Source: Thermoleophilia bacterium (lineage in GTDB: Bacteria > Actinomycetota > Thermoleophilia > BMS3ABIN01). From it: DNA of 36,010 nt. The notes under the pieces were generated by a model. The model searched no databases, was not told the DNA's origin, and was given only the letters and a program-made list of their open reading frames with translations. Every line of letters begins with the position of its first letter. Positions within the stretch are counted from its first letter, which is position 1. Below are positions 9,085-35,076 of the stretch, piece after piece. The stretch is from assembly GCA_030650885.1 (NCBI GenBank), contig JAUSDE010000197.1:1-36010 (forward strand). Direction: 5' to 3'. The translations under genes and the position numbers were made by a program.

Positions 9085-9101
9085 GGGGAGCCAGGCCTCC
9101 T

Positions 9102-9440: not shown

Positions 9441-9887
9441 CTACATGACGGTTACCCAGGCGCCGTACCATAGCCCCCAGGTGACAAAGCCGTGCTGAAG
9501 CTGGCTGCGCCTGCCACCACCGGGCAGGGCAATCGAGTATTCATCGGTTATTGGCAGGCCCAGGCGGGAGTTGGGGCCGCACTTTGAGGTTCCTGCATCG
9601 CAATAGGCCTTGTAGATCACGTAGATGCCGCCGTTGATCGTGTGTCCGCCTGTGACCGTGGACCAGTAGACATCGCCGTTCTGGAACATGTTCATCCTGG
9701 CGCCGGTGACACCGGGGACTACGCCGGGGACGTCGATCTCATCGCTGGTTGCGAGGTGCAGGGCTCCTTTTGGACCACCCAACATCTGGTATTTGCCCAT
9801 TATCCCACCATAAACCGCGTGAGCTCCCAGGGTGCTATTCCAGGTTATGATAGCTTTTTGAAGGTTCTGTGCCTTGCCGTCCCAGGC
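9441..9887 (-). repeat. Conserved 3' LGFP tail module, copy 3 (M4 protease gene)
   Basis: Encodes AWDGKAQNLQKAIITW...GARMNMFQNGDVYWS...YCDAGTSKCGPNSRLGLPITDEYSIALPGGGRRSQLQHGFVTWGLWYGAWVTVM. Confidence 0.8.
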
Positions 9888-12308: not shown

Positions 12309-12521
12309 TTTCCACTCCCAGTACCGGCGTTTTCATCCCCGACAGGGTCTGGCGCCTCCCCAAAAAAGTCTACTGGGATTACAGCCTTGAACTTGGCCTA
12401 TGCCCGAACCCTCAATAACTGATTCGGCCCGGGAGCGACTATATATAAGCCGGAGGGGGTGCTAACGCGGTTCAGGAGGGGGTCTACCCCTGTCCGAGAA
12501 CGGGCGTTCAGGGACTTTTAC

Positions 12522-15500: not shown

Positions 15501-16115
15501 TTGACTAATATTCGACAGGGACAGCTGTGAGTTGTGATAGCCCCTGGAGTCGATGTAGCTGGCCGTCATCTTTGTGACTACCGGCACCTGGCCGGTTGGG
15601 CTGCTGGTCAGGTCGATGCGATACTGAAAAAATCGGCCGGCGTCCGTGAAAATCAGATCGCCTATCGTCTCGCCCGCGGATTTGGTGCTGGCAAAGTGGT
15701 TGGGTAATTCGTCGACTACTTCGCTGACCGGCTGCCAGTCACCCCACTGGCTGCCGTCCTGGCTGAAGCGGACTTCCACGGCTACGTCGGCTCCGGACGG
15801 CTGATCGGCTTTCCAGTGAAGCCCGAGGGCGTTGAAAGTGTAATCGGCCGCGATGGGTTCGGAGAGATAGCTGCCTTGAGGCTGTGCTGGCTGCAGAGAA
15901 AGCGCCAGCTCCCGGCTTCCAGCCACGGGAACGACGCCGGTGCCACTCGATTCGCCTGATTCAAAGTCGGTGCCGGTCTGGACAAAGTCACCGCTGATTG
16001 CTTCCGGGTGAGATGTCTGGCTGCCGAATCCGGGAAAAACAAAGAATGCGGCAATCAGAAGCAGAACCACGACTGCTGTTCCTGTGAAGTACTTATACCT
16101 GCCACGCATGATCAT
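12522..16115 (-). CDS. Membrane-anchored/secreted N-acetylmuramoyl-L-alanine amidase (Amidase_2/PGRP-type) + 9 LGFP repeats + SpoIID/LytB-type domain
   Basis: 1197-aa ORF with an N-terminal hydrophobic segment. The Amidase_2 block is KKIILHHTAGSNYDP...WGDIGYNFLVDELGRVYEGR...LGHRDLAGNYTACPGD (nt ~14928-15452). Nine repeats of the type I(L/F)xKYLxLGGPxGxLGLPxSDExDxSGVxGxRExxFxxGRIYW cover nt ~13401-14858. The C-terminal SpoIID-like block is LELYMRGIAETSSGVPTDFLKTMTVAARSYAVWH...VVTYGGSVAMTSYFSNSDGRTRSAQEVWG...GHGVGLSGHGA (nt ~12561-13163). Confidence 0.88.
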   Translation of the reverse strand: MIMRGRYKYFTGTAVVVLLLIAAFFVFPGFGSQTSHPEAISGDFVQTGTDFESGESSGTGVVPVAGSRELALSLQPAQPQGSYLSEPIAADYTFNALGLHWKADQPSGADVAVEVRFSQDGSQWGDWQPVSEVVDELPNHFASTKSAGETIGDLIFTDAGRFFQYRIDLTSSPTGQVPVVTKMTASYIDSRGYHNSQLSLSNISQNVRDALAPASASADLNYIPRTQWGANDAYTQANWPSEYAQPKKIILHHTAGSNYDPNPFATVLGIWQYHAVSLGWGDIGYNFLVDELGRVYEGRMGGNGVVGAHALGWNTGSVGISVMGNYEAHDINTAIYNAVAELMTIKANQNQIDPYGNSYFVHYEGCPDNCYPVGGYSSNILGHRDLAGNYTACPGDSLYAYLPYFRTAAYINYSPIPIVAGIRVKWDSLNGAPGPATGAEYCLSNPGGQCPLEAQAQDFQNGIIIWNPAGGVYWIHGGILEKYNQLGGASGSMGLPRSDEYGVAEGRGNDFAGGRIYWCPGVGTHAVTGAILAKLLSDGGVARDGFPTTDEYDVPGYAGTRAGDFQRARIYWSASGSSRTVIGGILGKYLALGGPASPLGLPVSDESDISGLSGGRQSEFTNGRIYWAPGVGVYGVYGAILTKYLALGGPAGSYGMPTSDEYAAANGRAQNLQRGTITWEASLGAHSVIGGIQVKYAQFGGPAGSLGLATSDEGDVSGVSGARESAFQRGRIYWAPVTGGHAVMGAIFTKYLALGGPAGLLGLPLTDEYDISGVTGGRESDFQQGRIYYHATTGTYEVYGGILGKYLQLGGPAGALGLPVSGETDVSGVSGAREHGFQRGRIYWSSTTGGHTVNGGIYVKYIEYGGPTSALGLPLTDEYDYGSGRRSDFQGGYIYWSATTGTQVFAGTATTVTADSTYEARDAGGALLATIAPGQVASVRYSSGNYSLQAPGVSLNGSSYIRFTANGGVMKVSSYHDIPSWNPGLDDNLFRGTIEVRYSPASDAVWVVNELPLELYMRGIAETSSGVPTDFLKTMTVAARSYAVWHLDRNGKYGASEIFHLKNSRNGNGDDQQYKGYGLEARFPDLATAVTSTAGQVVTYGGSVAMTSYFSNSDGRTRSAQEVWGISTWPWLQSVADPDCAGMAMNGHGVGLSGHGALDRASRGDSYTTILGYYYTGTTVQTVNTTRNVRIAIARAS

Positions 16116-21370: not shown

Positions 21371-22414
21371 TCAGTTTTCGAAGCATTCCCGCATCAGCTC
21401 CAGCGCATCCGCGAAACTGCCGGCTCGCCTCAGGCCATCCCTAAGACCAGCATCCGGCCTGAAAGTCTTCAGAAACCAGCCGTAGAATTTTCTCATGTAC
21501 CTTGAGGCTCGTTCCTCGCCCATCTCGATAACAACATCCCGATAAAAACAGGACATCTCGGAGAGTACTTCTCCAGCTGGTCTGCGGGAGGGCTCGACTC
21601 CGTCCAGCAGGTCCCTGTAAATCCAGGGATTGCCCAAAGAAGCCCTGCCGATCATTACCGCGGCGCAGCCATTCTTGATCAGGGATGATGCCTGTCCCGG
21701 GCGGGCGACATCACCGCTGGCGATCACAGGCACTCCCAGTGAAACGGCCAGTGCCGCGGAAACGGAGTGGTCCGCCCAACCTTTCTGGCCCTGAATCGCC
21801 AATCTCGGATGAATACAGATGGCCGACGCTCCAGCCTGAACCAATTTTTTCGCAAATTCAGGCGCCGTTATCTCTCGTTTAAGCCCCGATCGTATCTTAA
21901 CTGTAACCGGGATACTCACGGCATCAGATACTGCAGCAGTCACACGAGACGCCAACTCTGCATCTCCCATCAGAGCAACCCCGGCGCCGGTCTTGACTAC
22001 CTTTCGCACCGGACATCCCATGTTGATGTCTATAACATCCGCGCCGGCCGCTTCCGCCGCAAGGGCGGCTTCGACCATCACTCCGGCATCGTTGCCAAAA
22101 ATCTGCACTGACACCGGATGCTCCTCTTCCGTCAGCTTTAACATCGCCTGGGTACGCCGGTTGTGATAATGGATACCATAGCTGCTGATCATCTCGGTGG
22201 TCACCAGTCCGGCTCCGAAACGCCGCGCCTGAAGCCGGAAGGCAGAGCCGCTGATGCCTGCCATCGGCGCCTGCACCAGCCGGTTCGGTACGTACAGGGA
22301 GCCTATGTTGAAGCCATCGCCAAGAGGCCGCAAGCCGGCTCCGGAACCCCCGTTGATGCCGGACGGTTCGTCGCCGCTAAAGAGTTCATTCGTATGTGAC
22401 GTAGTATGCGTCAT
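21371..22414 (-). CDS. dus: tRNA-dihydrouridine synthase (Dus family)
   Basis: 347-aa ORF with VQAPMAGISGSAFRLQARRFGAGLVTTEMISS, DINMGCPVRKVVKTGAGVALM and GDVARPGQASSLIKNGCAAVMIGRASLGNPWI. Confidence 0.88.
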   Translation of the reverse strand: MTHTTSHTNELFSGDEPSGINGGSGAGLRPLGDGFNIGSLYVPNRLVQAPMAGISGSAFRLQARRFGAGLVTTEMISSYGIHYHNRRTQAMLKLTEEEHPVSVQIFGNDAGVMVEAALAAEAAGADVIDINMGCPVRKVVKTGAGVALMGDAELASRVTAAVSDAVSIPVTVKIRSGLKREITAPEFAKKLVQAGASAICIHPRLAIQGQKGWADHSVSAALAVSLGVPVIASGDVARPGQASSLIKNGCAAVMIGRASLGNPWIYRDLLDGVEPSRRPAGEVLSEMSCFYRDVVIEMGEERASRYMRKFYGWFLKTFRPDAGLRDGLRRAGSFADALELMRECFEN

Positions 22415-22430
22415 GCTAGAATACCCTCAC

Positions 22431-23279
22431 ATGGCTGACCTGGTTCTCGAAACCCACAACCTCACCAAAGAGTTTATCAGGCGCAAGGGGTTTTCTTCGC
22501 CCCGACGACCTTTGGACAAGACCGTTTTCACAGCTGTCAAGGGAATCAGCCTTTCCATCGAGCGTGGTGAGATCTTTGGCCTTCTCGGGCCGAACGGCGC
22601 CGGCAAAACGACCCTCACCAAGATGCTCTGTACCCTGTTGCTGCCCAGTGCGGGCAACGCAAGCATCTGTGGCTTCGACCTCGCCCGTCAACAGGGTAAA
22701 GTCAAATCCCGCATCGCTCTCATTTCCAGCGAAGAACGCAGCTTTTACTGGCGCCTGAGCGGACGACAGAACCTTGATTTTTTCGCGGCGCTCCATGGCC
22801 TTTCGAAAAAAACGGCCCGGCAGCGCATAGACAAGGTCCTCGAGATCGTCGAGATGTCCGACGCTGCCGACCGCCGATTCCAGGAATATTCCACCGGCAT
22901 GAAACAGCGCATGGGTCTGGCCCGCGGCCTGCTCGCAGATCCCGAGATCTTTTTCATGGATGAACCCACCAAGGGACTCGACCCTATCGCCGCCTGGCAT
23001 CTCCATGAATTCATCCGCAACCGGCTGGCGGCCGCAGGCAAGACCGTGGTCATCGCAACCCATCATCTGGCAGAAGCGGAACAGATCTGCGACCGTGTCG
23101 GCGTCATGTATGCCGGCGAGATGCGCGCTAGCGGTGCGGTCAAGGAACTCACCGGCGATGCCTCGCTTACTGACTTCTTTCGAGATCTGGTGGAACAGTC
23201 GATGGTGGAACCTTCGAAAAGCTGGGACGTGGGAGGCATGCCAGTCGAGGGCATGCCAGTGGAGGGAATGCCAGAATGA
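22431..23279 (+). CDS. ABC transporter ATP-binding protein (ABC-2/DrrA-like)
   Basis: The ORF track gives 22254..23279, but that 5' part is antisense to dus. MADLVLETHNLTKEF starts at ATG 22431 (alternative ATG at 22413). Walker A GLLGPNGAGKTT, signature YSTGMKQRMGLARGL, Walker B IFFMDEPTKGLD. The stop overlaps the next start (ATGA). Confidence 0.85.
   Translation: MADLVLETHNLTKEFIRRKGFSSPRRPLDKTVFTAVKGISLSIERGEIFGLLGPNGAGKTTLTKMLCTLLLPSAGNASICGFDLARQQGKVKSRIALISSEERSFYWRLSGRQNLDFFAALHGLSKKTARQRIDKVLEIVEMSDAADRRFQEYSTGMKQRMGLARGLLADPEIFFMDEPTKGLDPIAAWHLHEFIRNRLAAAGKTVVIATHHLAEAEQICDRVGVMYAGEMRASGAVKELTGDASLTDFFRDLVEQSMVEPSKSWDVGGMPVEGMPVEGMPE
23235..23279 (+). repeat. 3 x 15-bp tandem repeat at the ABC-2 ATPase 3' end
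   Basis: The units are ggcatgccagtcgag, ggcatgccagtggag and ggaatgccagaatga, encoding GMPVE-GMPVE-GMPE-stop. The repeat overlaps the RBS and start of the permease gene. Confidence 0.85.
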
Positions 23280-24097
23280 TACTCAATTTCAGAAAGCCGA
23301 TGGCGTTCCTGAAAAAAGACTTCCTGATGGAAATCAGCTACAAGTTTTCCTTCGTTCTGCAGTTCGCAAGCATCTTTTTTTCTGTGGTCATGTTCTACTT
23401 TGTGGCCAAACTGCTGGGCGATGCGCCATCGGTGCAGAGCAGCCTCAGCGAATATGGTGGTGACTATTTCTCATTCGTGCTGATCGGCATCGCCTTTTCA
23501 AATTTCCTTTCCGTCGGGCTTGGCAGTTTCGCCACCAGCATCCGTTCAGAACAGATGATCGGAACCCTCGAGGCCATGCTGGTCACGCCCACACGCCTGT
23601 CCAATATAGTGCTCTCCTCTTCCCAGTGGAGCTTCGCATTCACTTCCCTGCGCGTCGGCGTCTACCTGCTGATCGGCGGACTCTTCTTCGGAGTCAGTTT
23701 CGCGGGTGCAGCCGTGCTACCGGCGCTCCTGGCGCTTGTACTCACTGTCGTAGCCTTCTCCAGCCTTGGAATCATCTCTGCCAGCTTCATCATGGTCTAC
23801 AAACGCGGCGACCCGATCGCCTTCGTACTGGCTACTTCATCGACGCTGCTGGGTGGCGTCTACTATCCCATCAGTGTTCTGCCCGGCTGGCTGCAAAGCC
23901 TCTCCTATCTCTTTCCTATTACATATTCGCTGCGAGCTATCAGACTCTCTCTTCTGCAGGGAGCCGGATTTGACGAAGTCGGTAGCGACCTGCTGGCCCT
24001 GCTTGCCTTCTCCTGTATTACCATACCAATCAGCCTTTTTTGCTTCCGACTGGCTGTCAGAAGGGCCAAGCGTGACGGCAGTCTGGCTCATTATTAG
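23276..24097 (+). CDS. ABC-2 type transporter permease
   Basis: 273-aa polytopic membrane ORF, translationally coupled to the preceding ATPase, with a GGAGGG SD 9 nt upstream of the ATG. Confidence 0.8.
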   Translation: MILNFRKPMAFLKKDFLMEISYKFSFVLQFASIFFSVVMFYFVAKLLGDAPSVQSSLSEYGGDYFSFVLIGIAFSNFLSVGLGSFATSIRSEQMIGTLEAMLVTPTRLSNIVLSSSQWSFAFTSLRVGVYLLIGGLFFGVSFAGAAVLPALLALVLTVVAFSSLGIISASFIMVYKRGDPIAFVLATSSTLLGGVYYPISVLPGWLQSLSYLFPITYSLRAIRLSLLQGAGFDEVGSDLLALLAFSCITIPISLFCFRLAVRRAKRDGSLAHY

Positions 24098-24154: not shown

Positions 24155-24182
24155 TTCACTTTCAATCATCAGCATCTACAAT
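24155..24182 (+). promoter_or_regulatory. Possible sigma-70-type promoter for the rpoN operon
   Basis: TTCACT-N16-TACAAT lies in the 203-nt gap upstream of rpoN. It is followed by the direct repeats TCAGTCAA (x2) and CAGTCA. Pattern match only. Confidence 0.25.
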
Positions 24183-24300: not shown

Positions 24301-25683
24301 ATGGAACTCAAACCAACCCTGAAGACATCCCCATCGGTAAGCCAGCAACTGGTGCTATCACCAAGGCTCTACCAGAGCCTGAGTATACTTCGGCTGGCCG
24401 CCCCCGAACTCCAGGAGCTTATACAAAAGGAGCTCGTGGAGAATCCGACTTTAGAGATCCCTGAGCCTTCCGAGATGGATCAAGAGCATGGCAACACCGC
24501 CGAGCGGGAGCTCTGGGACGATTACCTGGGTGCGCACCGAAGTGAGGGCGGTAGTTATTCTGGCAGTGGCGAAGCGACAGCACGCGGGGAACTGGCCGCA
24601 AGCCCTGTAACCCTCACCGAGCACCTGACCACGCAGCTCGAGCTGGAGAGCCTCGATGACAGGCGGCGGCGTATCGGGCTCGCCATCATCGGCAGCCTCG
24701 ATGAAGACGGCTATCTCCGCGAACCGTTAACAGCTCTGGCCAGGACCATCGACAGGCCTGAAAGCGAGATCGAGGAGGTGCTGGCCCTGGTGCAGCATTT
24801 CGATCCTCCGGGAGTCGCAGCTCGTGACCTCGCGGAATGCCTGGCCATCCAGCTTGAGCAGATGAATTCTGGCGATACCGCAATCAGCATCGCAAGGGAT
24901 TTTCTACCCAAGGTGGCGCGTGGCGCATATACAGACATTGCAAAGACCCTGTCGATCTCTACCGCCCGAGTGCGCAATGCTGTCAAACTCATCCGGAGCC
25001 TGTGCCCCTCACCGGGATCCCTTTTCGATAACAGCCCGCCCGCGTCGGCCATCATTCCTGATATATACGCGCGACTTGACCGCGGCGGTAAGGTGCGGGT
25101 ATTGGCCAACAGGGAGATCCTGCCTTCCCTGAGGTTGAGTCGGCTTTACAAAGAGATGGCCGAAGCCAGCAACGAGGGCGCTGACAGGGAAACCACCCTC
25201 TACGTCAAGGAAAAGATCCAGGAGGCCTCGCGGCTGATCCGGGATATCGACCACCGGCGTACGACGGTTACCAAGGTAGCCCGCGCCATCGCCGATTCCC
25301 AGCCGGAATTTTTCACACTGGGGCCCGAACACCTTCGTCCGCTGGGACTTGAAGAGATCGCTGAAAAGCTGGAAGTGCATCCATCAACTGTCAGCCGTGC
25401 CATACTGGGAAAATATATGAGTACACCTTATGGCATCTTTGAGTTCCGCTATTTCTTTTCTGCTGGCTATGCGACCTCTGATGGCGATGGATTGTCATCC
25501 ACAGCAGTAAAGAAACGGCTGGCGGGAATGATCTCAGCCGAGGATCACCGCCGCCCACTATCCGACCAGAAGCTGGCAAAACAACTTGGAGCAAGCGGTC
25601 TCAGCATTTCACGCCGAACGGTGGCCAAATACCGTGAAGCATTGGGAATCAGTGCTTCCTGGGAGCGCAAGCAGATCAAATGA
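24301..25683 (+). CDS. rpoN: RNA polymerase sigma-54 factor
   Basis: The ORF track starts at TTG 24205. The typical region I sequence MELKPTLKTSPSVSQQLVLSPRLYQSLSILRLAAPELQELIQKELVENPTLE starts at ATG 24301. The C-terminal RpoN box is ISRRTVAKYREALGI. The stop overlaps the next start (ATGA at 25680). Confidence 0.92.
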   Translation: MELKPTLKTSPSVSQQLVLSPRLYQSLSILRLAAPELQELIQKELVENPTLEIPEPSEMDQEHGNTAERELWDDYLGAHRSEGGSYSGSGEATARGELAASPVTLTEHLTTQLELESLDDRRRRIGLAIIGSLDEDGYLREPLTALARTIDRPESEIEEVLALVQHFDPPGVAARDLAECLAIQLEQMNSGDTAISIARDFLPKVARGAYTDIAKTLSISTARVRNAVKLIRSLCPSPGSLFDNSPPASAIIPDIYARLDRGGKVRVLANREILPSLRLSRLYKEMAEASNEGADRETTLYVKEKIQEASRLIRDIDHRRTTVTKVARAIADSQPEFFTLGPEHLRPLGLEEIAEKLEVHPSTVSRAILGKYMSTPYGIFEFRYFFSAGYATSDGDGLSSTAVKKRLAGMISAEDHRRPLSDQKLAKQLGASGLSISRRTVAKYREALGISASWERKQIK

Positions 25684-27242
25684 CAGATAGAGCAGATAAA
25701 CCCTGGGCCCAGATTCGCGATGCGGTGCTTGTCGCCGTAGCCATAGTCGTCATTACCTACTTCCATTATTATCCACTTCATCTCGAGTTCATCTCACATG
25801 ATAACTTCCATATACTGCTACGGCGTCTTTATTACATCCCCATCCTGTTCTCAGCATATCGTTTCGGCATCAAGGGCGGTCTTCTGGCTTCAATCTCGGT
25901 CTCTGTGCTTTTTATCCCCCATGCGATCATGACCATGGGCGGCCTTTTATTCGAAGGCGAAGCGCTTGAGAATCTCTTTGATATCCTGCTTTACAATATG
26001 GTGGCCTTGATTATGGGCGCCGTTGTCGAAGCCAAGCGCCGGCAAGCCCAGAGATATGAGGAAGTTTTAAAACTCAACAGGGAGATCGAGGACCGTGAGA
26101 CTGATATCCGCCGTATGAAAGCTTATACGGAAAGCATACTGAACAGCGTCAGCAGCGGCGTGATTTCCTGCGACAGGCGCGGAACAATCGTTACCGTGAA
26201 CCCGGAAGCCCGCAAGATGCTGGCGCGTCATGAAGAGGACCTGGTAGCCTTTCCACTCGTTCGTATATTCGAAAAACACGATGAACTCAATCGTGCTGCT
26301 GAGCTCGTGCTGTCGGGCAAACAGACTCGAGCGACCATGGAGACAGAACTCGAATCCGCAGGCCGGCCGATGCCCGTAGCCGTTCGTATCACGCCACACC
26401 GAAGCAGCGGTCAGACTGTCGGAATCGTCATCACTCTCGAGGATCTGACCGAGGTCAAGGATCTGACCGAGCAGCTGCTGCGCGCAGACAAGCTATCCGG
26501 GCTCGGAGAACTTGTAGCCGGCGTCGCCCATGAAGTACGCAATCCCCTGGGCGTGATCAAGGCCAGCGTCCAGATGCTCGAGCAGGAAATGGAGCAGGGT
26601 TGTCAGGATGCTGAACTGACCCACGTGATGGCGCAGGAGATCGACCGACTCGACTCGGTGGTTAACGCGCTGCTTGACTTCGGCAGGCCATCTCAGTCAC
26701 AGTTTGGGCCTGTGGATGCTCACCGGGTGCTCGGTGAGGTCGTTCTTTTGACCAAACAGTTTGCCAAGCAGCAGAACGTGACGGTTTTCGACGAAAGCCT
26801 GGAAGGGCTGCCGGAGATAAGGGCAGACGAGGACAGGTTGAAGCAGATTTTTGTTAACCTGATTTCCAATGCCATCCAGGCGATGCCGGATGGCGGAAAC
26901 CTGACGATCAGCGCGGCCGTAAGGGAAGGCTTCCTCAGAATCTCTTTTTCGGATACCGGCATCGGCATCTCTCCCGAGGAAAAGGACCGCATCTTCGATC
27001 CATTCCATACAACACGCGCTGAGGGCAGCGGCCTGGGCCTGTCCATCGTGCATCGCATAGTAGACGCTCACAACGGGTACATTACCGCGGAAAGTGAGCC
27101 GGGCACCGGCAGCACTTTCACTGTTGGCTTGCCGATGGCTTATCAGCCAGAAGGCGAAGCCGGCGATCGGGTTTCAACCGCGAGTGAAAGTACAGATGGA
27201 ACTGTTTTGACAACAATCGAGGAAGATACCGATGTCCACTAG
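25680..27242 (+). CDS. Sensor histidine kinase (polytopic N-terminal domain, PAS, HisKA, HATPase_c)
   Basis: 520-aa ORF. The N-terminal ~120 aa are hydrophobic. PAS-like block: ILNSVSSGVISCDRRGTIVTVNPEARKML. H-box VAGVAHEVRNPLGVI, N-box FVNLISNAIQAM, G-boxes FSDTGIGI and GSGLGLSIV. Confidence 0.9.
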   Translation: MTDRADKPWAQIRDAVLVAVAIVVITYFHYYPLHLEFISHDNFHILLRRLYYIPILFSAYRFGIKGGLLASISVSVLFIPHAIMTMGGLLFEGEALENLFDILLYNMVALIMGAVVEAKRRQAQRYEEVLKLNREIEDRETDIRRMKAYTESILNSVSSGVISCDRRGTIVTVNPEARKMLARHEEDLVAFPLVRIFEKHDELNRAAELVLSGKQTRATMETELESAGRPMPVAVRITPHRSSGQTVGIVITLEDLTEVKDLTEQLLRADKLSGLGELVAGVAHEVRNPLGVIKASVQMLEQEMEQGCQDAELTHVMAQEIDRLDSVVNALLDFGRPSQSQFGPVDAHRVLGEVVLLTKQFAKQQNVTVFDESLEGLPEIRADEDRLKQIFVNLISNAIQAMPDGGNLTISAAVREGFLRISFSDTGIGISPEEKDRIFDPFHTTRAEGSGLGLSIVHRIVDAHNGYITAESEPGTGSTFTVGLPMAYQPEGEAGDRVSTASESTDGTVLTTIEEDTDVH

Positions 27243-28575
27243 CATTCTTGTCGTCGACGATGAAAAGAACATGCGTTTTGTCGTAGGCAGGGCACTATCA
27301 GGCGCAGGCCATGAAATACGCGAGGCTGCCTGCGGCGAAGATGCACTCGAGGCTTTCGATGTTGCCATCCCTGATCTGGTAATCCTCGACCAGCGCATGC
27401 CGGGAATGGGTGGCCTGGCCACTCTCAGCGAGATCAAGAAATCTTACCCGGACATGCCGGTCATCATGTTGACTGCCCACGGGAATGTCGAAAGCGCCGT
27501 GCAGGCCATGAAGGCCGGAGCCACAGAATATCTGACCAAACCCTTTGACGTGGAGGAGCTCAAGCTCACGGTCGCCAAAGCTCTCAAAGTCGGCAACCTC
27601 GTTCGCCAGGTTGATTATCTGCGCGGCGAACTCGATCGCGATTATGATACGTCGGGCATCGTGGGAGACAGCCAGGCAATGAAGGACGTCCTCGAAACTG
27701 TCGCGCGCGTGGCCGCATCCGATGCCAACGTGATGGTCTACGGAGAAAGCGGCACGGGCAAGGAGCTGATCGCCCGGGCACTCCATGAACAAAGCAACCG
27801 CAACGGCAAGCCATTCATTCAGCTCAGTTGCGCGGCATTGCCAGAAACGCTCCTTGAGAGCGAACTCTTCGGCTACGATAAAGGTGCTTTTACCGGAGCC
27901 GTTGACTCGAAACCCGGCCGCTTCGAACTGGCCGACTCCGGTACGCTCTTCCTTGACGAGATAGGGGACATCTCCCTCACCGTCCAGGTCAAACTGCTGC
28001 GCGTGCTCGAACAGATGAGCTTCGAAAGGCTCGGCGGCTCCAAGACGATAAATGTAGACATCAGACTTATCGGCGCCACAAACCGCGACCTTCCCGCAAT
28101 GATAAGGGAAGGAGAATTCCGCGAGGATCTTTTTTACCGTCTGAACGTCATCCCGATCAACCTGCCTCCGCTGCGCGATCGTCGCGGCGATATCAAACTG
28201 CTGGTCCGGCATTTTCTGAAGCGATTCTCAAATGACAAGGAGATGTCGGCTGAAGCCCTCAGACTGCTGGAAGATTATCACTGGCCAGGTAACGTGCGCG
28301 AGCTTCAAAATGCAATCGAAAGGGCGACCATTCTTAGCCGGGAAAAGGTCATGGTCCCCGCCGACCTTCCAGCCGAGATCAGACAGCGCGCTTCGCTTTC
28401 CAGCGATACTATTAGTCTGCCCGCAGAAGGAGTCGCGCTGGAAAAAGTGGAACGCGAGCTGATCATGCAGGCACTGCAGCGCACTGGTGGCAATCGCACA
28501 AAAGCGGCCGAATTGCTGGGAATAAGCCGGCATACATTGCTGTACCGAATAGAAAAATATAGGCTGGGTCAATGA
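27232..28575 (+). CDS. Sigma-54-dependent response regulator (NtrC family bEBP: REC + AAA+ + Fis-type HTH)
   Basis: 447-aa ORF overlapping the kinase gene by 11 nt. REC domain (LVILDQRMPGMGG), Walker A GESGTGKE, the sigma-54 contact loop GAFTGA (YDKGAFTGAV), and C-terminal HTH NRTKAAELLGISRHTLLYRIEKY. Confidence 0.92.
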   Translation: MSTSILVVDDEKNMRFVVGRALSGAGHEIREAACGEDALEAFDVAIPDLVILDQRMPGMGGLATLSEIKKSYPDMPVIMLTAHGNVESAVQAMKAGATEYLTKPFDVEELKLTVAKALKVGNLVRQVDYLRGELDRDYDTSGIVGDSQAMKDVLETVARVAASDANVMVYGESGTGKELIARALHEQSNRNGKPFIQLSCAALPETLLESELFGYDKGAFTGAVDSKPGRFELADSGTLFLDEIGDISLTVQVKLLRVLEQMSFERLGGSKTINVDIRLIGATNRDLPAMIREGEFREDLFYRLNVIPINLPPLRDRRGDIKLLVRHFLKRFSNDKEMSAEALRLLEDYHWPGNVRELQNAIERATILSREKVMVPADLPAEIRQRASLSSDTISLPAEGVALEKVERELIMQALQRTGGNRTKAAELLGISRHTLLYRIEKYRLGQ

Positions 28576-28666
28576 CCGCCTTGACCCTGACTACTGACAC
28601 AGGTATTCTGATTAACAATAATATGAACGACTTTAGCCCCATTGCCAGGGAGCCGAAGAAGGCAAA

Positions 28667-29869
28667 ATGAAACGACTCGGACTCCTCTACCTGGCCGCTC
28701 AGAACCTGCGACGCAAGCCTTTTCGAAGCTTTGTCACTATTGCGATCGTAGCTCTGGCCGCCGGCACGCTATTCTCTGCAACCCTGCTGATCGGAAGCGT
28801 TGATCGCAGCCTGGAAGTAGGGATGGAGCGTCTGGGCGCCGATTTGCTGGTCGTGCCTGAAGGTTACCAGGAGTCCGGACAGGCAGCGCTGATCACCGGA
28901 GCGCCTACCAGCTTCTATATGGATGGCAGCATCCTCGACCAGGTGAAGACGGTCCCCGGGGTCGATCAGGCGTCTCCGCAACTCTTTATCGAATCCATGG
29001 TTTCTTCTCAATGCTGCACGGGCCACGTACAGCTGGTTGGCTATGATCCATCAAGTGATTTTGTTGTCAGCCCCTGGCTGAGAGACAATCTCCAGCGGAC
29101 GCTTAGCAAGGACGAAGTCGTGATTGGTTCGCTAATCCTTGCAAACAAGGGCGAACAGGTGCATTTCTACGGCCATGACTTCGATGTCGCCGGTGTCCTT
29201 GACGCCACCGGAATGGGCGTCGATGAGAGCGTCTTCATGAGCCTGGATACCGCTTATCTGATGGCTAGGGAATCCGCCCAGGTGGCTGAATCGCCGCTGG
29301 ACGTCAAACCAGGCCAGATCTCATCCGTGCTGGTGAAGATGGCGGACGGCACCAATGTAGACCAGTTGACTCAAAGGATAAAGACGAATGTTCCAGGAAC
29401 CACTGTCATCACTGCAAACGAGTTAAGCCGCTCGGTGACTGATCGGATCTCCGGCTTCAAGCGCGGTTTTATCGCAGTGGATGCGATCGTATGGATAATG
29501 TCGCTTCTGACTATAGCTGCTATTTTTTCCATGATCGTCAATGAGCGGCAGAGGGAGATCGGCCTCCTAAGGGCAATGGGATCCAGCCGGCAATTCGTAT
29601 TCCGCCTTATGCTGACTGAAGCGGTCTTCCTGACCGCGGCCGGCGGCATCGCAGGAATATTTGTTGGGGGCGCCGCCCTGTTTATCTTCAAGGCGATCAT
29701 CACTTCCAGCCTTGGTATACCTTATCTATGGCCTCCGGTTCTGACTTTCGTGAAGCTTATGGCTATCACCATGATACTGGCGATAGTCAGTGGTGCTGTA
29801 GCCTCTTTATATCCAGCGCTTAGCTCCAGCAGGCTGGAGCCATATGCAGCTATCAGGCGGGGCGAGTGA
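28667..29869 (+). CDS. ABC transporter permease, FtsX/MacB-like (extracytoplasmic domain between TM1 and TM2)
   Basis: 400-aa ORF. The order is N-terminal TM, a ~230-aa soluble region, then three C-terminal TM segments with ...RQREIGLLRAMGSSRQFVF... (FtsX-type). Confidence 0.82.
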   Translation: MKRLGLLYLAAQNLRRKPFRSFVTIAIVALAAGTLFSATLLIGSVDRSLEVGMERLGADLLVVPEGYQESGQAALITGAPTSFYMDGSILDQVKTVPGVDQASPQLFIESMVSSQCCTGHVQLVGYDPSSDFVVSPWLRDNLQRTLSKDEVVIGSLILANKGEQVHFYGHDFDVAGVLDATGMGVDESVFMSLDTAYLMARESAQVAESPLDVKPGQISSVLVKMADGTNVDQLTQRIKTNVPGTTVITANELSRSVTDRISGFKRGFIAVDAIVWIMSLLTIAAIFSMIVNERQREIGLLRAMGSSRQFVFRLMLTEAVFLTAAGGIAGIFVGGAALFIFKAIITSSLGIPYLWPPVLTFVKLMAITMILAIVSGAVASLYPALSSSRLEPYAAIRRGE

Positions 29870-29876
29870 CGCGCTC

Positions 29877-30560
29877 ATGACTACCGACGCAATGATCGTT
29901 CTAAAGGATATCAGCAAGACCTATAAGGTCGGCCCCAGTACAGTGCGAGCTGTCGAGAAAGTCGACCTTGAGATACCCCGTGGGCAGATGGTCTCTATCG
30001 TGGGGCACTCCGGCTCGGGAAAGACAACTCTTCTGAGCCTCATTGGAGGTCTTACCAAACCGAGTGACGGCCGCGTGATAATCGACGACATCAACATCTG
30101 GACGCTCTCAGATAAAGAGATGTCACAGCTCAGAAATGAGAAGATCGGATTCTCTTTCCAGTTTGCCAGCCTGTTCCCCACGCTTAACGCGATCGACAAT
30201 GTCAGGCTGCCGGCGACTTTCGGCAGTAAAAATGAATCCGACCATGATCGCGCCATCGAGCTTCTGAATCTCGTAGGCCTGGAAGACAGGATCTATTCAT
30301 ACCCTGGCCAGCTTTCAGGTGGCGAGCAGCGGCGGGTAGCCCTGGCGCGCACCTTGATGAACAAGCCGCGGCTCATCCTTGCTGATGAACCAACTGGTGA
30401 CCTTGATGAGGATACCGAGGCTGACATCCTGGAGATCTTCCGCACGATCAACGGCGAAGGCGTGACGATTGTCATCGTCACCCACTCCCGGGCGGTCGCC
30501 TCGCAGGCCCAGAGGATGCTGCGCATGCATCGCGGCCTGCTCTCCGAGGAGGAAGAATGA
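29877..30560 (+). CDS. ABC transporter ATP-binding protein (MacB/LolD-like)
   Basis: The ORF track starts at 29844, inside the permease gene. MTTDAMIVLKDISKTY starts at ATG 29877, 8 nt after the permease stop. Walker A GHSGSGKTTLL, signature LSGGEQRRVALARTL, Walker B ILADEPTGDLD. Confidence 0.88.
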   Translation: MTTDAMIVLKDISKTYKVGPSTVRAVEKVDLEIPRGQMVSIVGHSGSGKTTLLSLIGGLTKPSDGRVIIDDINIWTLSDKEMSQLRNEKIGFSFQFASLFPTLNAIDNVRLPATFGSKNESDHDRAIELLNLVGLEDRIYSYPGQLSGGEQRRVALARTLMNKPRLILADEPTGDLDEDTEADILEIFRTINGEGVTIVIVTHSRAVASQAQRMLRMHRGLLSEEEE

Positions 30561-30915: not shown

Positions 30916-30947
30916 ACCGCTTATGTGCCAAATGCCACACAAGCGGT
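30916..30947. promoter_or_regulatory. 32-bp dyad containing TGT-N10-ACA; candidate bEBP enhancer (UAS), alternatively a terminator hairpin
   Basis: ACCGCTT-a-TGTG-ccaaatgc-CACA-c-AAGCGGT has 11 of 12 arm positions complementary. Its centre is ~170 bp upstream of the GG of the 31100 promoter. Confidence 0.5.
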
Positions 30948-31099: not shown

Positions 31100-31115
31100 T
31101 GGCACATTCCTTGCT
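31100..31115 (+). promoter_or_regulatory. Sigma-54 (-24/-12) promoter
   Basis: TGGCAC-attcc-TTGCT is an exact match to the TGGCAC-N5-TTGCW consensus. It is intergenic, ~180 nt upstream of ATG 31297, and rpoN and a bEBP are encoded just upstream. Confidence 0.8.
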
Positions 31116-31126
31116 TCATATACAGG

Positions 31127-31185
31127 CAGCAAATGACTTCATGCCCTTCTAATCGGTCTGGGTCCCAGGTTATTGCTGATTTTTT
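31127..31185 (+). promoter_or_regulatory. Terminator-like stem-loop plus U6 at the very start of the sigma-54 transcript (possible attenuator)
   Basis: CAGCAAAUGAC (31127-31137) pairs with GUUAUUGCUG (31169-31178): 10 bp with one bulged A and one G-U. This encloses the inner palindrome CUGGG-U-CCCAG and is followed by A-UUUUUU-G (T run 31180-31185). Confidence 0.35.
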
Positions 31186-31244
31186 GCTCCGGCGGGTGAA
31201 CCGGAGCCTGATTTTACGAGAACCCCAGTATCTTGTAAGCGGAT

Positions 31245-31281
31245 TTTCCTGACGGGGTCACTGGGGGACCCCGTCAGGAAA
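31245..31281 (+). promoter_or_regulatory. Perfect 15-bp stem hairpin 16 nt upstream of the start codon
   Basis: TTTCCTGACGGGGTC (31245-31259), loop ACTGGGG, GACCCCGTCAGGAAA (31267-31281). There is no U tract on either strand, so it is a leader structure rather than a classical terminator. The right arm contains CAGGAAAT, which is repeated at the real RBS/ATG (31291-31298). Confidence 0.6.
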
Positions 31282-31296
31282 TAACTACCCCAGGAA

Positions 31297-32373
31297 ATGA
31301 AAGACACGACTAAAAAAAAGATCTTCCTTTTCAGCGTCGCATCAGTGGCGCTGATCGCGTGCGCCTGGATAGCCATACCCACTGCTTCGATCAGCCCCGG
31401 CGATATCGAGAAAGCCGTTCCCCTTGGCCAGCCTGTTTCCATAAACTCTTCGCCGCTTGCAGCAATTGGAAAAGTGGCCGTCTACGCCGATGACCAGCAG
31501 CTGGCCCTGGAGTACAACCTCGGAAGCGGAGACCTCAGCCGCGATTTCCAGCTCAAACCGGGACAAAGCATACGTATTGAAGCGAAAATATCTTCCGTAA
31601 TCGGACTCACTCGCGAATTCACCTCTACTTTCACTACGGTGGAACCGGTGACCATGGCCGATATTTCAGTAAATGGCTCAAGGATGGAGCCTGGACAAAA
31701 GATCCCGCCACAGCCGACGCTGACATTCTCGTTCAGTAAACCGTTGAGCTCGGCTTCCGTTTCTCTCGACGGCAGTGACGCAATCGAACTACAGATAGAC
31801 CCGGAAGATCCTACCGTTGCCACTTTGCCACCGACAGTCTCGTTGAAGCAGGGTGCGACCCATCTGATGAACCTGACGGCGACGGCAGTCGATACGGCGA
31901 CACTGGATTCTCGTGAAGTCCGAGCCAGTGTCGTAAGGCCGCTTTCCCTTTACGGCAGCGTGACCACAGTCGACGGACAGACAAAGATCGAGCTCGATTC
32001 CACGGCTGCTTTCGGTGATCCTGCCGCGGTTAGGGCAGCCCTTTCGACTACACTCCCGAGCCCCGAGGTCGTAGTGGATAAACAAAAGATCCTGATCACC
32101 TGCGCGAGCCTTGAACCGGGCAACGATTACACGATAAAGCTGGCGAGCGCTCTGGGCGGCGACGGCAGCTTTCTGGAAGCGCCGCTTGAGATGAATGTGA
32201 CTTACCGCTCTGATCCATCAGCGGTTTCACCATCAGGAAACACCGGTTACCGCGGTTATGTATATACCAGCGGCGGCACTTCGTCAGGCTCTGCCTCAGG
32301 TAGCGGAGGAGCTCCAGCTGATTCGGGACCACCTCCGGGATGGCCATCATGTTGTCCCTGGCCGCCTCAATAA
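31297..32373 (+). CDS. Membrane-anchored/secreted Ig-like (Big_5/SbsA-like) domain protein with Gly/Ser/Pro-rich, Cys-Cys-containing C-terminus
   Basis: 358-aa ORF with an N-terminal TM/signal segment IFLFSVASVALIACAWIAI and beta-rich segments (e.g. KIPPQPTLTFSFSKPLSSASVSLDG). The tail is SGGTSSGSASGSGGAPADSGPPPGWPSCCPWPPQ. It is the first gene downstream of the sigma-54 promoter at 31100. Confidence 0.75.
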   Translation: MKDTTKKKIFLFSVASVALIACAWIAIPTASISPGDIEKAVPLGQPVSINSSPLAAIGKVAVYADDQQLALEYNLGSGDLSRDFQLKPGQSIRIEAKISSVIGLTREFTSTFTTVEPVTMADISVNGSRMEPGQKIPPQPTLTFSFSKPLSSASVSLDGSDAIELQIDPEDPTVATLPPTVSLKQGATHLMNLTATAVDTATLDSREVRASVVRPLSLYGSVTTVDGQTKIELDSTAAFGDPAAVRAALSTTLPSPEVVVDKQKILITCASLEPGNDYTIKLASALGGDGSFLEAPLEMNVTYRSDPSAVSPSGNTGYRGYVYTSGGTSSGSASGSGGAPADSGPPPGWPSCCPWPPQ

Positions 32374-32379
32374 AATGAG

Positions 32380-34833
32380 ATGAAGTTGTCTGGCAAAACC
32401 CGAAATTTCCTGTCGGTACCGTTAGCCCTGTTGACGGCCATATCGCTGCTCACCGCCGTGGCGCCGATTTCCCTGTCTGCAACAACTGGAAGCGCAGCCA
32501 CGGAAGTCTATACGGGTAATGATCCATTGCCACCGGCTGCAGATACTCCGCCAGCCGCACCTGCCGTAGATGTCACTTCCGGGAGCGAAAACCCGGGGGT
32601 CTCCACAGTAATTGACAAGCTACCAGTGTATTCGTCCACACCTGACGCTGTTATCAGCCTGCAGCTCGTGACCATGGCGGATACGACAGCACCCCTGATT
32701 ACCGGATATTCCCCTGCAAACGACGCAATAACGGGTTCATCGGTGGCCATAAGCGCCAGCTTTTACGATCCCGACCCTTCAGTCGGCATCAAGCTAAGCA
32801 CAGGCATGATACATGTGGATAACAGGCACCAGCCGGGCACAGTGGTCACGGAATCCGGAATATCCAACCTGAAATCGGGCCTGACCGAAGGCCAGCACAA
32901 GCTGGAGGCTTTTATCTGCGACAACAACTACAACTGCAGTGTGGCAACCTGGTATATCAATGTGGACACGACTGCACCGGTTATCTCCAACGCCCAGCCG
33001 ACCGGGACGATTAATTCCACAAGCGCGACAATCGCGGCATCTTTCACTGACGGCGCCGGAACCGGAGTCGATGTCACTTCGGCCAACGTGGTCATTGACG
33101 GCGTCAACATCGATTCATCATGCGGGATATCCGCTGACGGCGTCAGCTGTGATTCTGGCGTACTTGCGGAGGGTAACCACGATTTGCAGGTTGAAGTCTA
33201 TGATCTGGCAGGCTATAGGGCAGTGAGAAACTGGAGCTTCAGTGTCGACCTGGCCGCAATCGCCATAACCGGCCAGACACCAGCTCACAACAGCTGGCAA
33301 ACCTCCGCTTCTCCATCAATCGAGGCGGTTTTTCACCAGGCTGGCAGTGGCTTAATCGACACATCTTCCATCACGATGCTTCTGGACGGTGTGGATGTCA
33401 GCGCCGATGCCGGGCGCTCGTCCGGTGGAATCGTCTTCCTTCCGACATCGCAATTATCCCAGGGGGGACACACGATGATCGTCGCCCTGAGAGATGATCT
33501 GGGGCACGAGGGCAGGTGTGAGTGGAGTTTCACAGTCGACTCTCTGGCTCCTCAGATCCTTAATCAAACACCATCTGGAACTGCGGGCAACCAGCCGACC
33601 ATTTCCGCTCTCATGGCCGACACTGGCAGCGGTATTGATTCAGCTTCGGTCAATCTCACGGTGGATGGTATCAATGCTACCGACTCATCTGACGTGACTG
33701 TTAATCAGGTTACCTACATTCCACCTGAATCCCTTACCCCCGGCCCACACAGCGTTCAATTAGCAGTAAGAGATCTGGCCGGCAACCAGCAGACTTCGGC
33801 ATGGAATTTCAGCGTTTCTCAGCCTCCTGCTCCATCGCGTCCGGCCATCACGCCTCCCGTCGCAGGCCAGATGACCGTGGCGGAGTACTGGCAAAGTTAC
33901 AGTTCGATTTCCGGCCCTGAAGGCAACTGGATCATCTCCGGTTTTATGGCCTTCCCCAGCACTTACTACCTCCCGTGGTACGATTCCGGCCAGACCAATG
34001 GTCCCGTAAAGGACGAACTTGTTATTCGCAACGATGGCGCCGGCAGCGCGATAGTCAACGTCCTTCTTGGCGGCAAGGTCAAGTGGCAGGGAAAAGTCGA
34101 GGAAGGCGCAAGCGAGACCATTCACATTCCTGAAACCACCGGTGGTCCCGTGAAGATAATCTGCCCCTCTGGGCAGCCTCTGGAAGTTACCCATCGCTTG
34201 ACCGGAGAGAACGGCTTTGTCAGCGAAACTCCGGCATTAGCTGACACCGACATGGAATCTGTGCTGCTCCTGCCCTGGTACGAGACTCGCTCAACGGATG
34301 AAGGAAGCTCTTCGCTTGTTATCGCCAACGCCGGAAGTGTGGATGCGTCGGTCGATGTATATGTCGGCGACCCGGAAAAACCGGAGTCACTGAAAGGTCA
34401 CTATAACATCGGGCCTGATTCCGCAGCTAGAACGGTCCTTGCTGATACAAGCGGCGGCCCGCTTCGAATAATCTCCACAAATAACCAGCCTCTGCTCGCT
34501 GAGGTGCAGTTGGTCAACCGGGATACCATTTCGGAAACGATCGCTACCGGCATTTCACATGTGGCTGACAGTTTCAAATTCGAGGCTACCAACAGCAGCA
34601 CTCACCGGGCTTCAAAACTGATGGTTGGAAACGGTAGCGACCGGGACCTGCGGATTGAGGTCAGAATCGGCGATGAGCTCCTTCGTGATCCAGAAAATAC
34701 CGATAATGACTTTTTTACGATTCCCCGTCAGGGATTTGAATCAATCGCTTTGAACCCCGCTCCGGGTAAGTCAGTCGAAATTATCTGTACCGACTGTATG
34801 TATGGCGAAGGGCTCGTAGTTTCCAGGTTTTAG
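32380..34833 (+). CDS. Large secreted surface protein: 4 tandem Ig-like (Big_5-like) repeats + 3 tandem C-terminal beta-sandwich-like modules
   Basis: 817-aa ORF with a signal peptide ending ...ISLSATTGSAA. Four ~95-aa repeats begin DTTAPLITGYSPAND, DTTAPVISNAQPTGT, DLAAIAITGQTPAHN and DSLAPQILNQTPSGT. Three ~90-aa modules begin YYLPWYDSGQ, LLLPWYETRS and FKFEATNSS, each ending in a G-x-(V/L)-(K/R/E)-I-(I/C) strand. Confidence 0.82.
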   Translation: MKLSGKTRNFLSVPLALLTAISLLTAVAPISLSATTGSAATEVYTGNDPLPPAADTPPAAPAVDVTSGSENPGVSTVIDKLPVYSSTPDAVISLQLVTMADTTAPLITGYSPANDAITGSSVAISASFYDPDPSVGIKLSTGMIHVDNRHQPGTVVTESGISNLKSGLTEGQHKLEAFICDNNYNCSVATWYINVDTTAPVISNAQPTGTINSTSATIAASFTDGAGTGVDVTSANVVIDGVNIDSSCGISADGVSCDSGVLAEGNHDLQVEVYDLAGYRAVRNWSFSVDLAAIAITGQTPAHNSWQTSASPSIEAVFHQAGSGLIDTSSITMLLDGVDVSADAGRSSGGIVFLPTSQLSQGGHTMIVALRDDLGHEGRCEWSFTVDSLAPQILNQTPSGTAGNQPTISALMADTGSGIDSASVNLTVDGINATDSSDVTVNQVTYIPPESLTPGPHSVQLAVRDLAGNQQTSAWNFSVSQPPAPSRPAITPPVAGQMTVAEYWQSYSSISGPEGNWIISGFMAFPSTYYLPWYDSGQTNGPVKDELVIRNDGAGSAIVNVLLGGKVKWQGKVEEGASETIHIPETTGGPVKIICPSGQPLEVTHRLTGENGFVSETPALADTDMESVLLLPWYETRSTDEGSSSLVIANAGSVDASVDVYVGDPEKPESLKGHYNIGPDSAARTVLADTSGGPLRIISTNNQPLLAEVQLVNRDTISETIATGISHVADSFKFEATNSSTHRASKLMVGNGSDRDLRIEVRIGDELLRDPENTDNDFFTIPRQGFESIALNPAPGKSVEIICTDCMYGEGLVVSRF

Positions 34834-34887: not shown

Positions 34888-34918
34888 TGTGGCATTTAAC
34901 ACACCCGATGTGCCAAAT
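34888..34918. promoter_or_regulatory. TGT-N10-ACA dyad plus ATGTGCCAAAT box; candidate bEBP enhancer (UAS)
   Basis: TGTG-gcatttaa-CACA sits at 34888-34903, with its centre ~167 bp upstream of the GG of the 35061 promoter. The 11-mer ATGTGCCAAAT at 34908-34918 is identical to 30923-30933. Confidence 0.45.
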
Positions 34919-35060: not shown

Positions 35061-35076
35061 TGGCATAAAACTTGCT
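35061..35076 (+). promoter_or_regulatory. Sigma-54 (-24/-12) promoter
   Basis: TGGCAT-aaaac-TTGCT. It is intergenic, ~70 nt upstream of ATG 35144, and shares the 11-mer CTTGCTTCATA with the promoter at 31100. Confidence 0.75.

Follow-up and report, generated by a model that had tools for sequence, protein, structure and literature searches.

A probable conserved sigma-54 module encoding sigma factor, sensor kinase and activator side by side in an uncultured lineage labelled Actinomycetota

The stretch of DNA analyzed here (the window) comprises the 36,010 nucleotides (nt) at positions 1 to 36,010 of the forward strand of contig JAUSDE010000197.1, from the Thermoleophilia bacterium assembly GCA_030650885.1. 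It contains a gene for sigma-54 (rpoN) followed by genes for a sensor histidine kinase and an NtrC/AtoC-type bacterial enhancer-binding protein (bEBP) of the response regulator type (coordinates of the features are given in Table 1). Both the list of open reading frames (ORFs) and the sequence place the three genes head to tail on the plus strand. The rpoN stop codon TGA (25681-25683) lies within an ATGA whose ATG, at 25680, is the start codon of the kinase gene, giving a 4-nt overlap (junction sequence ATCAAATGACAG). Because the regulator ATG at 27232 precedes the end of the kinase stop codon TAG (27240-27242), these two genes overlap by 11 nt (junction sequence ACCGATGTCCACTAGC). Both overlaps had been claimed in a preliminary description of this DNA and both are borne out by the sequence. 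The shared strand, the overlapping stop and start codons, and an order that is kept in relatives as well as in the window give the three genes the layout of an operon, suggesting that rpoN, kinase, and regulator share one transcript. A single plus-strand terminator match lies within the triad, inside the kinase coding sequence (26719-26738), and it was rejected as a terminator since such matches occur at chance level (12 found, 9.1 ± 3.0 expected).

The arrangement has also been followed in relatives, which are labelled L001-L005 (from an RpoN scan with one genome per species), L081-L087 (further RpoN homologues), and L088-L090 (reached by look-ups with the kinase or the regulator). The scan returned five close relatives of the window RpoN (L001-L005, 49-71% identity), beyond which identity drops to 42% or less (Myxococcaceae, Xanthomonadales, and others). 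Gene order in these five was read by tblastn with the window proteins. The full order is seen in L002, L003, and L005, where a Dus gene on the minus strand is followed by the genes for the ATP-binding cassette (ABC) transporter ATPase and permease of the ABC-2 type, rpoN, kinase, regulator, MacB permease, ATPase, and lipoprotein; L001 shows the conserved order as far as its contig goes and the L004 contig ends just past rpoN. An equivalent cluster is found in L081 and L085 (RpoN 55% and 47% identical to that of the window), and the rpoN-kinase-regulator triad stands in quite different surroundings in L084 (42%), L086 (43%), and L087 (38%). Kinase and regulator genes lie directly behind rpoN in 9 of the 10 relatives anchored on RpoN, over a range of 34-71% RpoN identity (L001, L002, L003, L005, L081, L084, L085, L086, and L087; the exception is L082/L083, and the truncated L004 stands outside the count). 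Conversely, rpoN is found directly upstream in all three loci reached through the kinase or the regulator, which are an Anaerosomatales metagenome-assembled genome (MAG; L088), a 1.59-Mb Joint Genome Institute contig (L089), and a 712-kb contig (L090). The 4-nt and 11-nt overlaps are both repeated in L090, and the 4-nt rpoN/kinase overlap is also present in L081, L085, L086, L087, and probably L005. Thus the concern that the adjacency might not be conserved, raised in the preliminary description, is answered by its retention in relatives. The contrast drawn there with the proteobacterial rpoN locus holds as well: among 75 rpoN loci from other phyla (mostly proteobacterial) that served as controls, not one has a kinase or bEBP gene downstream, and the context described for diderms consists of lptABC, PTS-Ntr, and hpf genes (Francke et al. 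2011, PMC3162934).

In a neighbour-joining tree the triad-linked RpoN proteins form one clade, apart from those of Firmicutes, Proteobacteria, and Myxococcota. All named homologues of RpoN, kinase, and regulator come from MAGs, with no cultured organism among them. Their labels, given by several submitters, are Thermoleophilia, Gaiellales, Actinomycetes, Actinobacteria, Coriobacteriia, and Anaerosomatales, all within Actinomycetota.

The RpoN protein scores above the cutoff for each of its three domains (PF00309, 45.2 bits; PF04963, 179 bits; PF04552, 188 bits) and for the model TIGR02395 (409 bits, cutoff 277), and it carries the RpoN box as RRTVAKYR at residue 438. Its start is placed at the ATG at 24301 rather than at the opening of a longer TTG ORF at 24205, because a length of 460 amino acids is shared by the database copy and the closest homologues and because this start codon aligns among relatives, whereas the upstream DNA does not. 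TAnAAT-like boxes are present upstream of rpoN in L001, L002, and L081 at a place equivalent to that of the candidate sigma-70-type promoter of the window. No sigma-54 promoter was detected upstream of rpoN with a position weight matrix (PWM), the best score between 21300 and 24320 being 5.3. A GG-N11-GC element at about 24103 was ruled out as a sigma-54 promoter by its wrong spacing.

The regulator has the domains expected of an activator of sigma-54, namely PF00072 (REC, 109 bits), PF00158 (Sigma54_activat, 243 bits), PF25601 (AAA_lid_14, 89 bits), and PF02954 (HTH_8, 66 bits), with a Walker A motif GESGTGKE at 171, GAFTGA at 218, and DEI at 242. It scores below the equivalog cutoffs for AtoC (525 versus 714 bits), NtrC (467 versus 559), and ZraR (422 versus 760), and the kinase likewise scores below those for AtoS (332 versus 646 bits, with the match beginning at residue 134) and ZraS (225 versus 479). 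Consequently, the pair falls outside the AtoSC, ZraSR, and NtrBC equivalog families, although the regulator is a member of their superfamily. The best 120 regulator homologues listed are all orthologues. The regulator is much better conserved than RpoN, as the window and the Coriobacteriia-type loci share 56-57% identity in the regulator versus 34-38% in RpoN, with 41-42% in the kinase.

The kinase core matches PF00512 (HisKA) at 53.6 bits and PF02518 (HATPase_c) at 105.9 bits, and its H-box, HEVRNP, contains a histidine (His284) that is invariant in 92 homologues. The N-terminal membrane region remains below the Pfam gathering scores of the families that it approaches (MASE1, 27.5 versus 29.8; DUF4118, 23.3 versus 28.4). 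The first ~115 residues are nevertheless kept in all triads, so that the input domain is orthologous throughout. Within it, P54, F62, G63, G66, and G113 are invariant in the same 92 homologues, and H29, H44, R48, L50, Y51, Y52, H81, and N98 are near-invariant. Residues 1-135 give a confident AlphaFold2 model (predicted local distance difference test score 91.9) with helices at 8-30, 40-50, 52-85, and 93-134 joined by short connectors, the last helix continuing into the linker towards the PAS domain. A polytopic membrane input domain followed by one PAS domain had been proposed for this kinase, and the region indeed proves to be a conserved four-helix membrane domain plus a single PAS domain. 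A Foldseek comparison of the 1-135 model with the PDB gave a best E-value of only 0.9, indicating no solved structural relative, and sequence matches to solved kinases start only at residue 135, the closest being the ZraS kinase core. The modelled fold suggests that the cue is an intramembrane or membrane-interface signal. As it has no solved or curated relative, this input domain offers studies of signal sensing a new target.

The preliminary description placed sigma-54 promoters immediately downstream of the triad. Two such promoters do exist within the cluster, but they are 2.5 kb (P1) and 6.5 kb (P2) past the regulator stop codon, behind an operon for a MacB-type ABC transporter. Their PWM scores are 25.2 and 22.6 bits, and the next-best site in the window scores 10.4. 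P1 precedes the genes for a 358-amino-acid membrane-anchored protein and an 817-amino-acid Big_13 protein, and P2 precedes a DUF4418 gene. The P1 core TTGGCAC-N5-TTGCT is invariant in an alignment of the window with L002, L003, and L005, an identical P2 core precedes the DUF4418 gene of L090, and -24/-12 promoters are kept at the sequence level in L002, L003, L005, L081, and L090. No sigma-54 promoter was found by PWM before the ABC-2 operon or the MacB operon (best upstream scores 5.3 and -2.2).

Each promoter is accompanied by an upstream dyad, a candidate activator binding site (upstream activating sequence, UAS) with the consensus TGTGGCA-N2-TGCCACA, which was seen in an alignment of the region upstream of P1 with three relatives. 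When both strands of the whole window are searched with up to 3 mismatches, the only matches are those at 30924 and 34888. Their number alone is at chance level (2 found, 1.8 expected); however, their positions do not look like chance, because equivalent dyad-promoter spacing recurs in L003 (179 and 168 nt), L002 (176 nt), and L081 (175 nt). L090, a close relative that was left out of the construction of the PWM, has three promoters with scores of 20-25 bits where the background reaches at most 7.4, and their dyads lie 173-212 nt upstream. This layout of dyad and promoter corresponds to the enhancer-promoter geometry that is classical for NtrC-family activators, and position and conservation suggest that the dyad is the site of this regulator. 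The third promoter of L090 (20396 on the plus strand, 24.8 bits, dyad 178 nt upstream) comes after an extra 487-amino-acid Big_13 gene located behind the DUF4418 gene. Since the window stops at 36010 and L090 has this third promoter, a counterpart probably lies just past the end of the window.

Transcripts from P1 would begin with a 5' leader of ~185 nt that is conserved in the window (31116-31296, plus strand), L003 (16974-17137), and L002 (15056-15264). It contains an invariant hairpin stem, GCTCCGG..CCGGAGC, at 31186-31207, with a T-run in the window, and a second conserved hairpin that directly adjoins the start codon of target gene 1. A comparison of the leader with Rfam found no family, only chance-level matches, and the leader could be an element for translational or attenuation control. 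In L002, a block of ~4.1 kb with three minus-strand genes (10738-14860; 143, 148, and 809 amino acids) sits between the lipoprotein gene and the UAS and promoter of the 358-amino-acid protein gene, with the UAS-promoter-leader unit intact.

In the Coriobacteriia-type loci L087, L088, and L089, a sigma-54-like element GTGGTAC/T-N5-TTGCW (at 9935, 8533, and 8512, plus strand; PWM 8-12 bits) lies ~60 nt upstream of rpoN, and a strong sigma-54 promoter (18-26 bits) directly follows the regulator gene. Together they suggest that the sigma-54 operon of this subclade is under positive autoregulation; the element upstream of rpoN is absent in the group of the window. In L086, a long near-perfect palindrome at 14192-14256 (GGGGACGTAGGTTGACTTGTTGACTTTTCGCCCGGGCGAAAAGTCAACAAGTCAACCTACGTCCCC) stands right after the regulator stop codon and could be a terminator or a protein-binding site.

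Table 1. Features of the window and of two related loci, with the basis for each assignment
Feature	Coordinates	Strand	Basis
ABC-2/DrrA-type ABC transporter ATPase	22254..23279	+	ABC_tran 100.7 bits; best match TIGR01188 drrA
ABC-2 permease (4-nt overlap with ATPase gene)	23276..24097	+	ABC2_membrane 65.6 bits; synteny
Candidate sigma-70-type promoter, TTCACT-16-TACAAT	24155..24182	+	9/12 consensus matches, in the 203-nt gap before rpoN
rpoN (sigma-54), 460 amino acids	24301..25683	+	Activator-interacting, core-binding and DNA-binding domains; TIGR02395
Sensor histidine kinase, 520 amino acids	25680..27242	+	Membrane input domain (residues 8-115), coiled-coil linker, one PAS, HisKA, HATPase_c
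NtrC/AtoC-type enhancer-binding response regulator, 447 amino acids	27232..28575	+	REC, AAA+ with GAFTGA, HTH_8
Sigma-70-like site before the MacB/FtsX permease gene	28594-28622	+	Consensus match
MacB/FtsX-type ABC transporter permease	28667..29869	+	MacB_PCD and FtsX
LolD/MacB-like ABC ATPase	29844..30560	+	ABC_tran 119.7 bits; LolD model 221 versus cutoff 308
Small putative lipoprotein, 112 amino acids	30557..30895	+	IAGC lipobox-like motif; weak BamE-like match
Dyad TGTGCCAAATGCCACA, candidate UAS	30924..30939		176 nt upstream of P1
Sigma-54 promoter P1, TGGCACATTCCTTGCT	31100..31115	+	Perfect -24/-12 consensus
Conserved leader hairpin abutting the start codon of target gene 1	31249..31281	+	7/18 predicted pairs compensatory (3-4 sequences)
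Target gene 1, membrane-anchored 358-amino-acid protein	31297..32373	+	Weak Ig-like (Big_5) signal
Target gene 2, secreted 817-amino-acid protein	32380..34833	+	Big_13 Ig-like repeats
Second dyad TGTGGCATTTAACACA, candidate UAS	34888..34903		173 nt upstream of P2
Sigma-54 promoter P2, TGGCATAAAACTTGCT	35061..35076	+	Single mismatch to consensus; fitting position
Target gene 3, cysteine-rich DUF4418 membrane protein, 152 amino acids	35144..35602	+	PF14387 92.6 bits versus cutoff 27
DUF4418 genes in relatives	L082 12933-13397 and 20448-20942; L090 18019-18480		

Several of the genes around the triad recur with it. The ABC-2 ATPase gene is kept upstream of rpoN in L001-L005, L081, L085, and L090; in the window its ORF opens mechanically at 22254, and the real start is probably near 22410-22428. 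Identification of this ATPase as LptB was rejected, based on its score (125 bits versus a cutoff of 240) and its ABC-2 permease partner. The MacB/FtsX permease gene follows the regulator gene in L002, L003, L005, L081, L085, and L090, the small lipoprotein gene is kept in L002, L003, L005, L081, and L090, and homologues of the 358-amino-acid protein gene stand behind an equivalent sigma-54 promoter in L002, L003, L081, and L090. Neither the 358- nor the 817-amino-acid protein has a match in the PDB by sequence. DUF4418 is a small multi-pass membrane protein with conserved cysteines and a recurrent companion of the MacB-type transporter and the Big_13 proteins, and in both the window and L090 its gene is preceded by a sigma-54 promoter of its own. 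In L082 (10001-20942), rpoN is convergent with genes for a MacB permease, ATPase, lipoprotein, SurA-like peptidyl-prolyl isomerase, Big_13 proteins, and two DUF4418 proteins. The target genes thus stay linked to rpoN in L082/L083 although the two-component pair is not beside it, and no strong sigma-54 promoter was found in L082/L083.

The other end of the window (1929-16115, minus strand) encodes five consecutive large secreted LGFP-repeat proteins, in which the repeats are fused to BNR/Ycf48-like, CAP, GH26, thermolysin M4, and amidase_2 plus SpoIID domains. This row looks like a cell-wall-anchored hydrolase arsenal. The LGFP repeat is characteristic of actinobacterial cell-wall proteins, and the row supports an actinobacterial origin of the contig. 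A cyclic di-GMP-I riboswitch (RF01051; 9103-9187, minus strand; 80.8 bits, E = 1.4e-14) lies within the mechanical ORF 7372-9291 (minus strand), indicating that the real start of this GH26 and LGFP-repeat gene is downstream of the riboswitch. The secreted GH26 glycosidase is probably under the control of cyclic di-GMP.

Based on these features, the following mechanism is proposed for the module. First, the three genes would be transcribed as one unit, starting at a sigma-70-type promoter within the 203-nt gap that precedes rpoN. The kinase would then sense a membrane or envelope cue via its four-helix intramembrane domain, possibly jointly with the PAS domain, and phosphorylate the REC aspartate of the regulator. 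Next, the regulator would oligomerise on the dyad, and ATP hydrolysis together with the GAFTGA loop would serve to open the sigma-54 holoenzyme at P1 and P2. Finally, the Ig-like-domain surface proteins and the DUF4418 membrane protein would be switched on.

Taken together, these findings make it probable that the window contains a sigma-54 regulatory module that is conserved and has been inherited vertically in an uncultured lineage labelled Actinomycetota. Several observations weigh against this interpretation. The kinase ATG is preceded by a weak ribosome-binding site at some distance (GGGAG, ~13 nt upstream), the rpoN-kinase gap is 10-77 nt instead of an overlap in several relatives (L001-L003, L084, L088, and L089), and L082/L083 (RpoN 50% identical) have rpoN without a neighbouring kinase-regulator pair. 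In addition, the proposed promoter region, that is, the 203-nt gap with its sigma-70-like site, consists of consensus matches only, the assignment of the dyad to the regulator stands on position and conservation only, and the neighbour-joining tree carries no support values. The taxonomy comes from submitters' MAG labels and the five LGFP-repeat proteins of the window.

A first alternative touches only the input step and does not conflict with the module as proposed. The kinase could read the activity of the adjacent MacB/FtsX-type transporter, in the manner of Bce systems, where the intramembrane-sensing kinase BceS reads BceAB, as part of a circuit for envelope stress or detoxification. The modelled kinase appears to have no sizeable extracytoplasmic loop, its helices being joined by short connectors, and genes for a MacB_PCD/FtsX permease, ATPase, and lipoprotein come right after the regulator gene in all Thermoleophilia-like loci. 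The MacB-type genes are still linked to rpoN in L082, where the kinase-regulator pair is absent. However, an equivalent input domain is found in L084/L086 and the Coriobacteriia-type loci with no MacB transporter nearby, the MacB-type operon has no sigma-54 promoter of its own whereas bceAB is a target of BceR, and the kinase has a PAS domain, which BceS lacks. Because the other subclades are without the MacB-type transporter, Bce-like sensing may apply to the group of the window but is not general, and overall it is considered fairly unlikely.

It has also been considered that the triad has no regulatory unity, the kinase and regulator being an ordinary sigma-54-dependent pair that is kept beside rpoN by inherited synteny and has its own promoter, with P1 and P2 served by another activator. 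The gaps of 10-77 nt noted above could hold promoters, the identity ranges of regulator (56-92%) and RpoN (34-87%) do not obviously reflect shared constraints, and the flanking target genes differ among the three subclades. In the window, L090, L081, L085, L086, and L087, however, the stop and start codons overlap and no space is left in which a terminator or promoter could lie. Furthermore, the order is kept down to 34-38% RpoN identity, in two classes and three flanking contexts, and strong sigma-54 promoters directly follow the regulator gene in L087-L089. A lack of regulatory unity is judged unlikely.

The gene could instead be a specialised, function-specific second sigma-54 paralogue, comparable to rpoN2 of Xanthomonas or the additional rpoN genes of Rhodobacter sphaeroides, with a general rpoN and other bEBPs elsewhere in the genome. 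Two to four sigma-54 variants are present in some Proteobacteria (Francke et al. 2011, PMC3162934), and the occurrence of rpoN without the two-component pair in L082/L083 means that the clade is not limited to a single arrangement. Against this, all RpoN homologues of at least 47% identity among the matches listed (from 5.8 billion proteins) belong to one clade, and every one of these whose context has been read has the triad, save L082/L083. There is also no second Thermoleophilia-labelled RpoN group among the best 120 matches listed. A second paralogue is, on this evidence, quite unlikely.

The last alternative is a recent horizontal transfer of the module from a phylum rich in sigma-54, the Actinomycetota label being due to a binning error or to chimeric contigs. 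It takes its appeal from the statement of Francke et al. 2011 (PMC3162934) that Actinobacteria "lack the Sigma-54 system" and from the fact that all carriers are MAGs. Between 20 and 31 kb the GC content is 0.53-0.58 and shows no marked step, no tRNA genes were found in the window, and no integrase or transposase families are among its annotated genes; with the flanking synteny, these features make the region unlike a recently acquired mobile island. Horizontal acquisition or mis-binning is highly improbable because of this synteny, in which flanking Dus, PolX, GT4, and amidase genes are shared with relatives on contigs that come from independent studies and reach 712 kb, and because of the depth of the clade, whose nearest outside RpoNs are only 37-42% identical; the labels are also consistent across at least five submitter groups, and the five LGFP-repeat proteins lie on the same contig.

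All components of the proposed module belong to known families; it is the arrangement and the host phylum that are unusual. As in the proteobacterial lptA/B-rpoN-hpf-ptsN-yhbJ locus, the sigma-54 gene is directly downstream of an ABC transporter ATPase gene, and the two loci share the tie between the sigma factor and cell-envelope functions that is a theme of Francke et al. 2011 (PMC3162934). In contrast to that locus, the ATPase of the window is DrrA/ABC-2-like with its own permease, and a kinase and a bEBP are found downstream rather than hpf and ptsN. AtoS/AtoC and ZraS/ZraR, the best-scoring named families, have the same output domains and chemistry as the pair described here, but AtoS and ZraS have periplasmic sensor domains where this kinase has a four-helix membrane domain.

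Borrelia and Chlamydia have sigma-54 with a single activator (Francke et al. 2011, PMC3162934). In the CtcB-CtcC-sigma-54 system of Chlamydia and the Hk2-Rrp2-RpoN system of Borrelia, an AtoS/NtrB-like PAS kinase and an NtrC-family regulator feed sigma-54, as they would here, and by analogy the module may work like these one-activator systems. CtcC is without a DNA-binding domain, whereas the regulator described here has HTH_8 and a candidate dyad UAS. To our knowledge, the two-component genes of Chlamydia and Borrelia are not linked to rpoN. In the rpoN2-vemR-fleQ genes of Xanthomonas and the function-specific rpoN paralogues of Rhodobacter sphaeroides, sigma-54 shares its location or its transcript with a response regulator and a bEBP, beside the genes that they control, and this is the nearest precedent for sigma-54 in an operon with its activator. 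These are secondary flagellar paralogues that exist beside a canonical rpoN; their operon does not include a histidine kinase, and FleQ is not an NtrC-type activator that is phosphorylated. The operon of the window differs in that it includes the kinase, has surface-protein targets, and has an arrangement that defines a whole RpoN clade.

The module also resembles the cassettes of extracytoplasmic function (ECF) sigma factors, in which a sigma factor is encoded with its own membrane signal transducer, next to its targets; this likeness extends to the Coriobacteriia-type relatives, which are possibly autoregulated too. By analogy, the unit would act as an ECF-sigma cassette (sigma factor, dedicated signal transducer, and local targets) built from sigma-54 parts. 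The proteins themselves are unrelated. In contrast to the proposed mechanism, in which an ATP-dependent activator would act on pre-bound sigma-54 holoenzyme, ECF sigma factors belong to the sigma-70 family and are controlled through sequestration with an anti-sigma factor.

Sigma-54 transcription usually involves one sigma factor that serves many separately encoded activators, and here sigma factor, sensor, and activator form one conserved unit. The Actinomycetota label of the host lineage is a more surprising point than the operon arrangement. A more far-reaching proposal, which is offered tentatively and is possible rather than probable, is that Actinomycetota with sigma-54 keep only a self-contained single-activator cassette, made up of a single rpoN, a single kinase with intramembrane sensing, and a single bEBP, that acts as an ECF-like envelope sigma factor and has been inherited as a unit since before the split between the Thermoleophilia-like and Coriobacteriia lineages. 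If so, the textbook absence of sigma-54 from Actinobacteria would be overturned, the cis-acting code would consist of the dyad plus a -24/-12 promoter, and loci of the Coriobacteriia type might drive their own operon from a sigma-54 promoter. If these genomes hold only one activator, the module would be a natural minimal sigma-54 circuit whose whole regulon could be read from sequence, and there would be a case for asking how and why a monoderm phylum has retained sigma-54.

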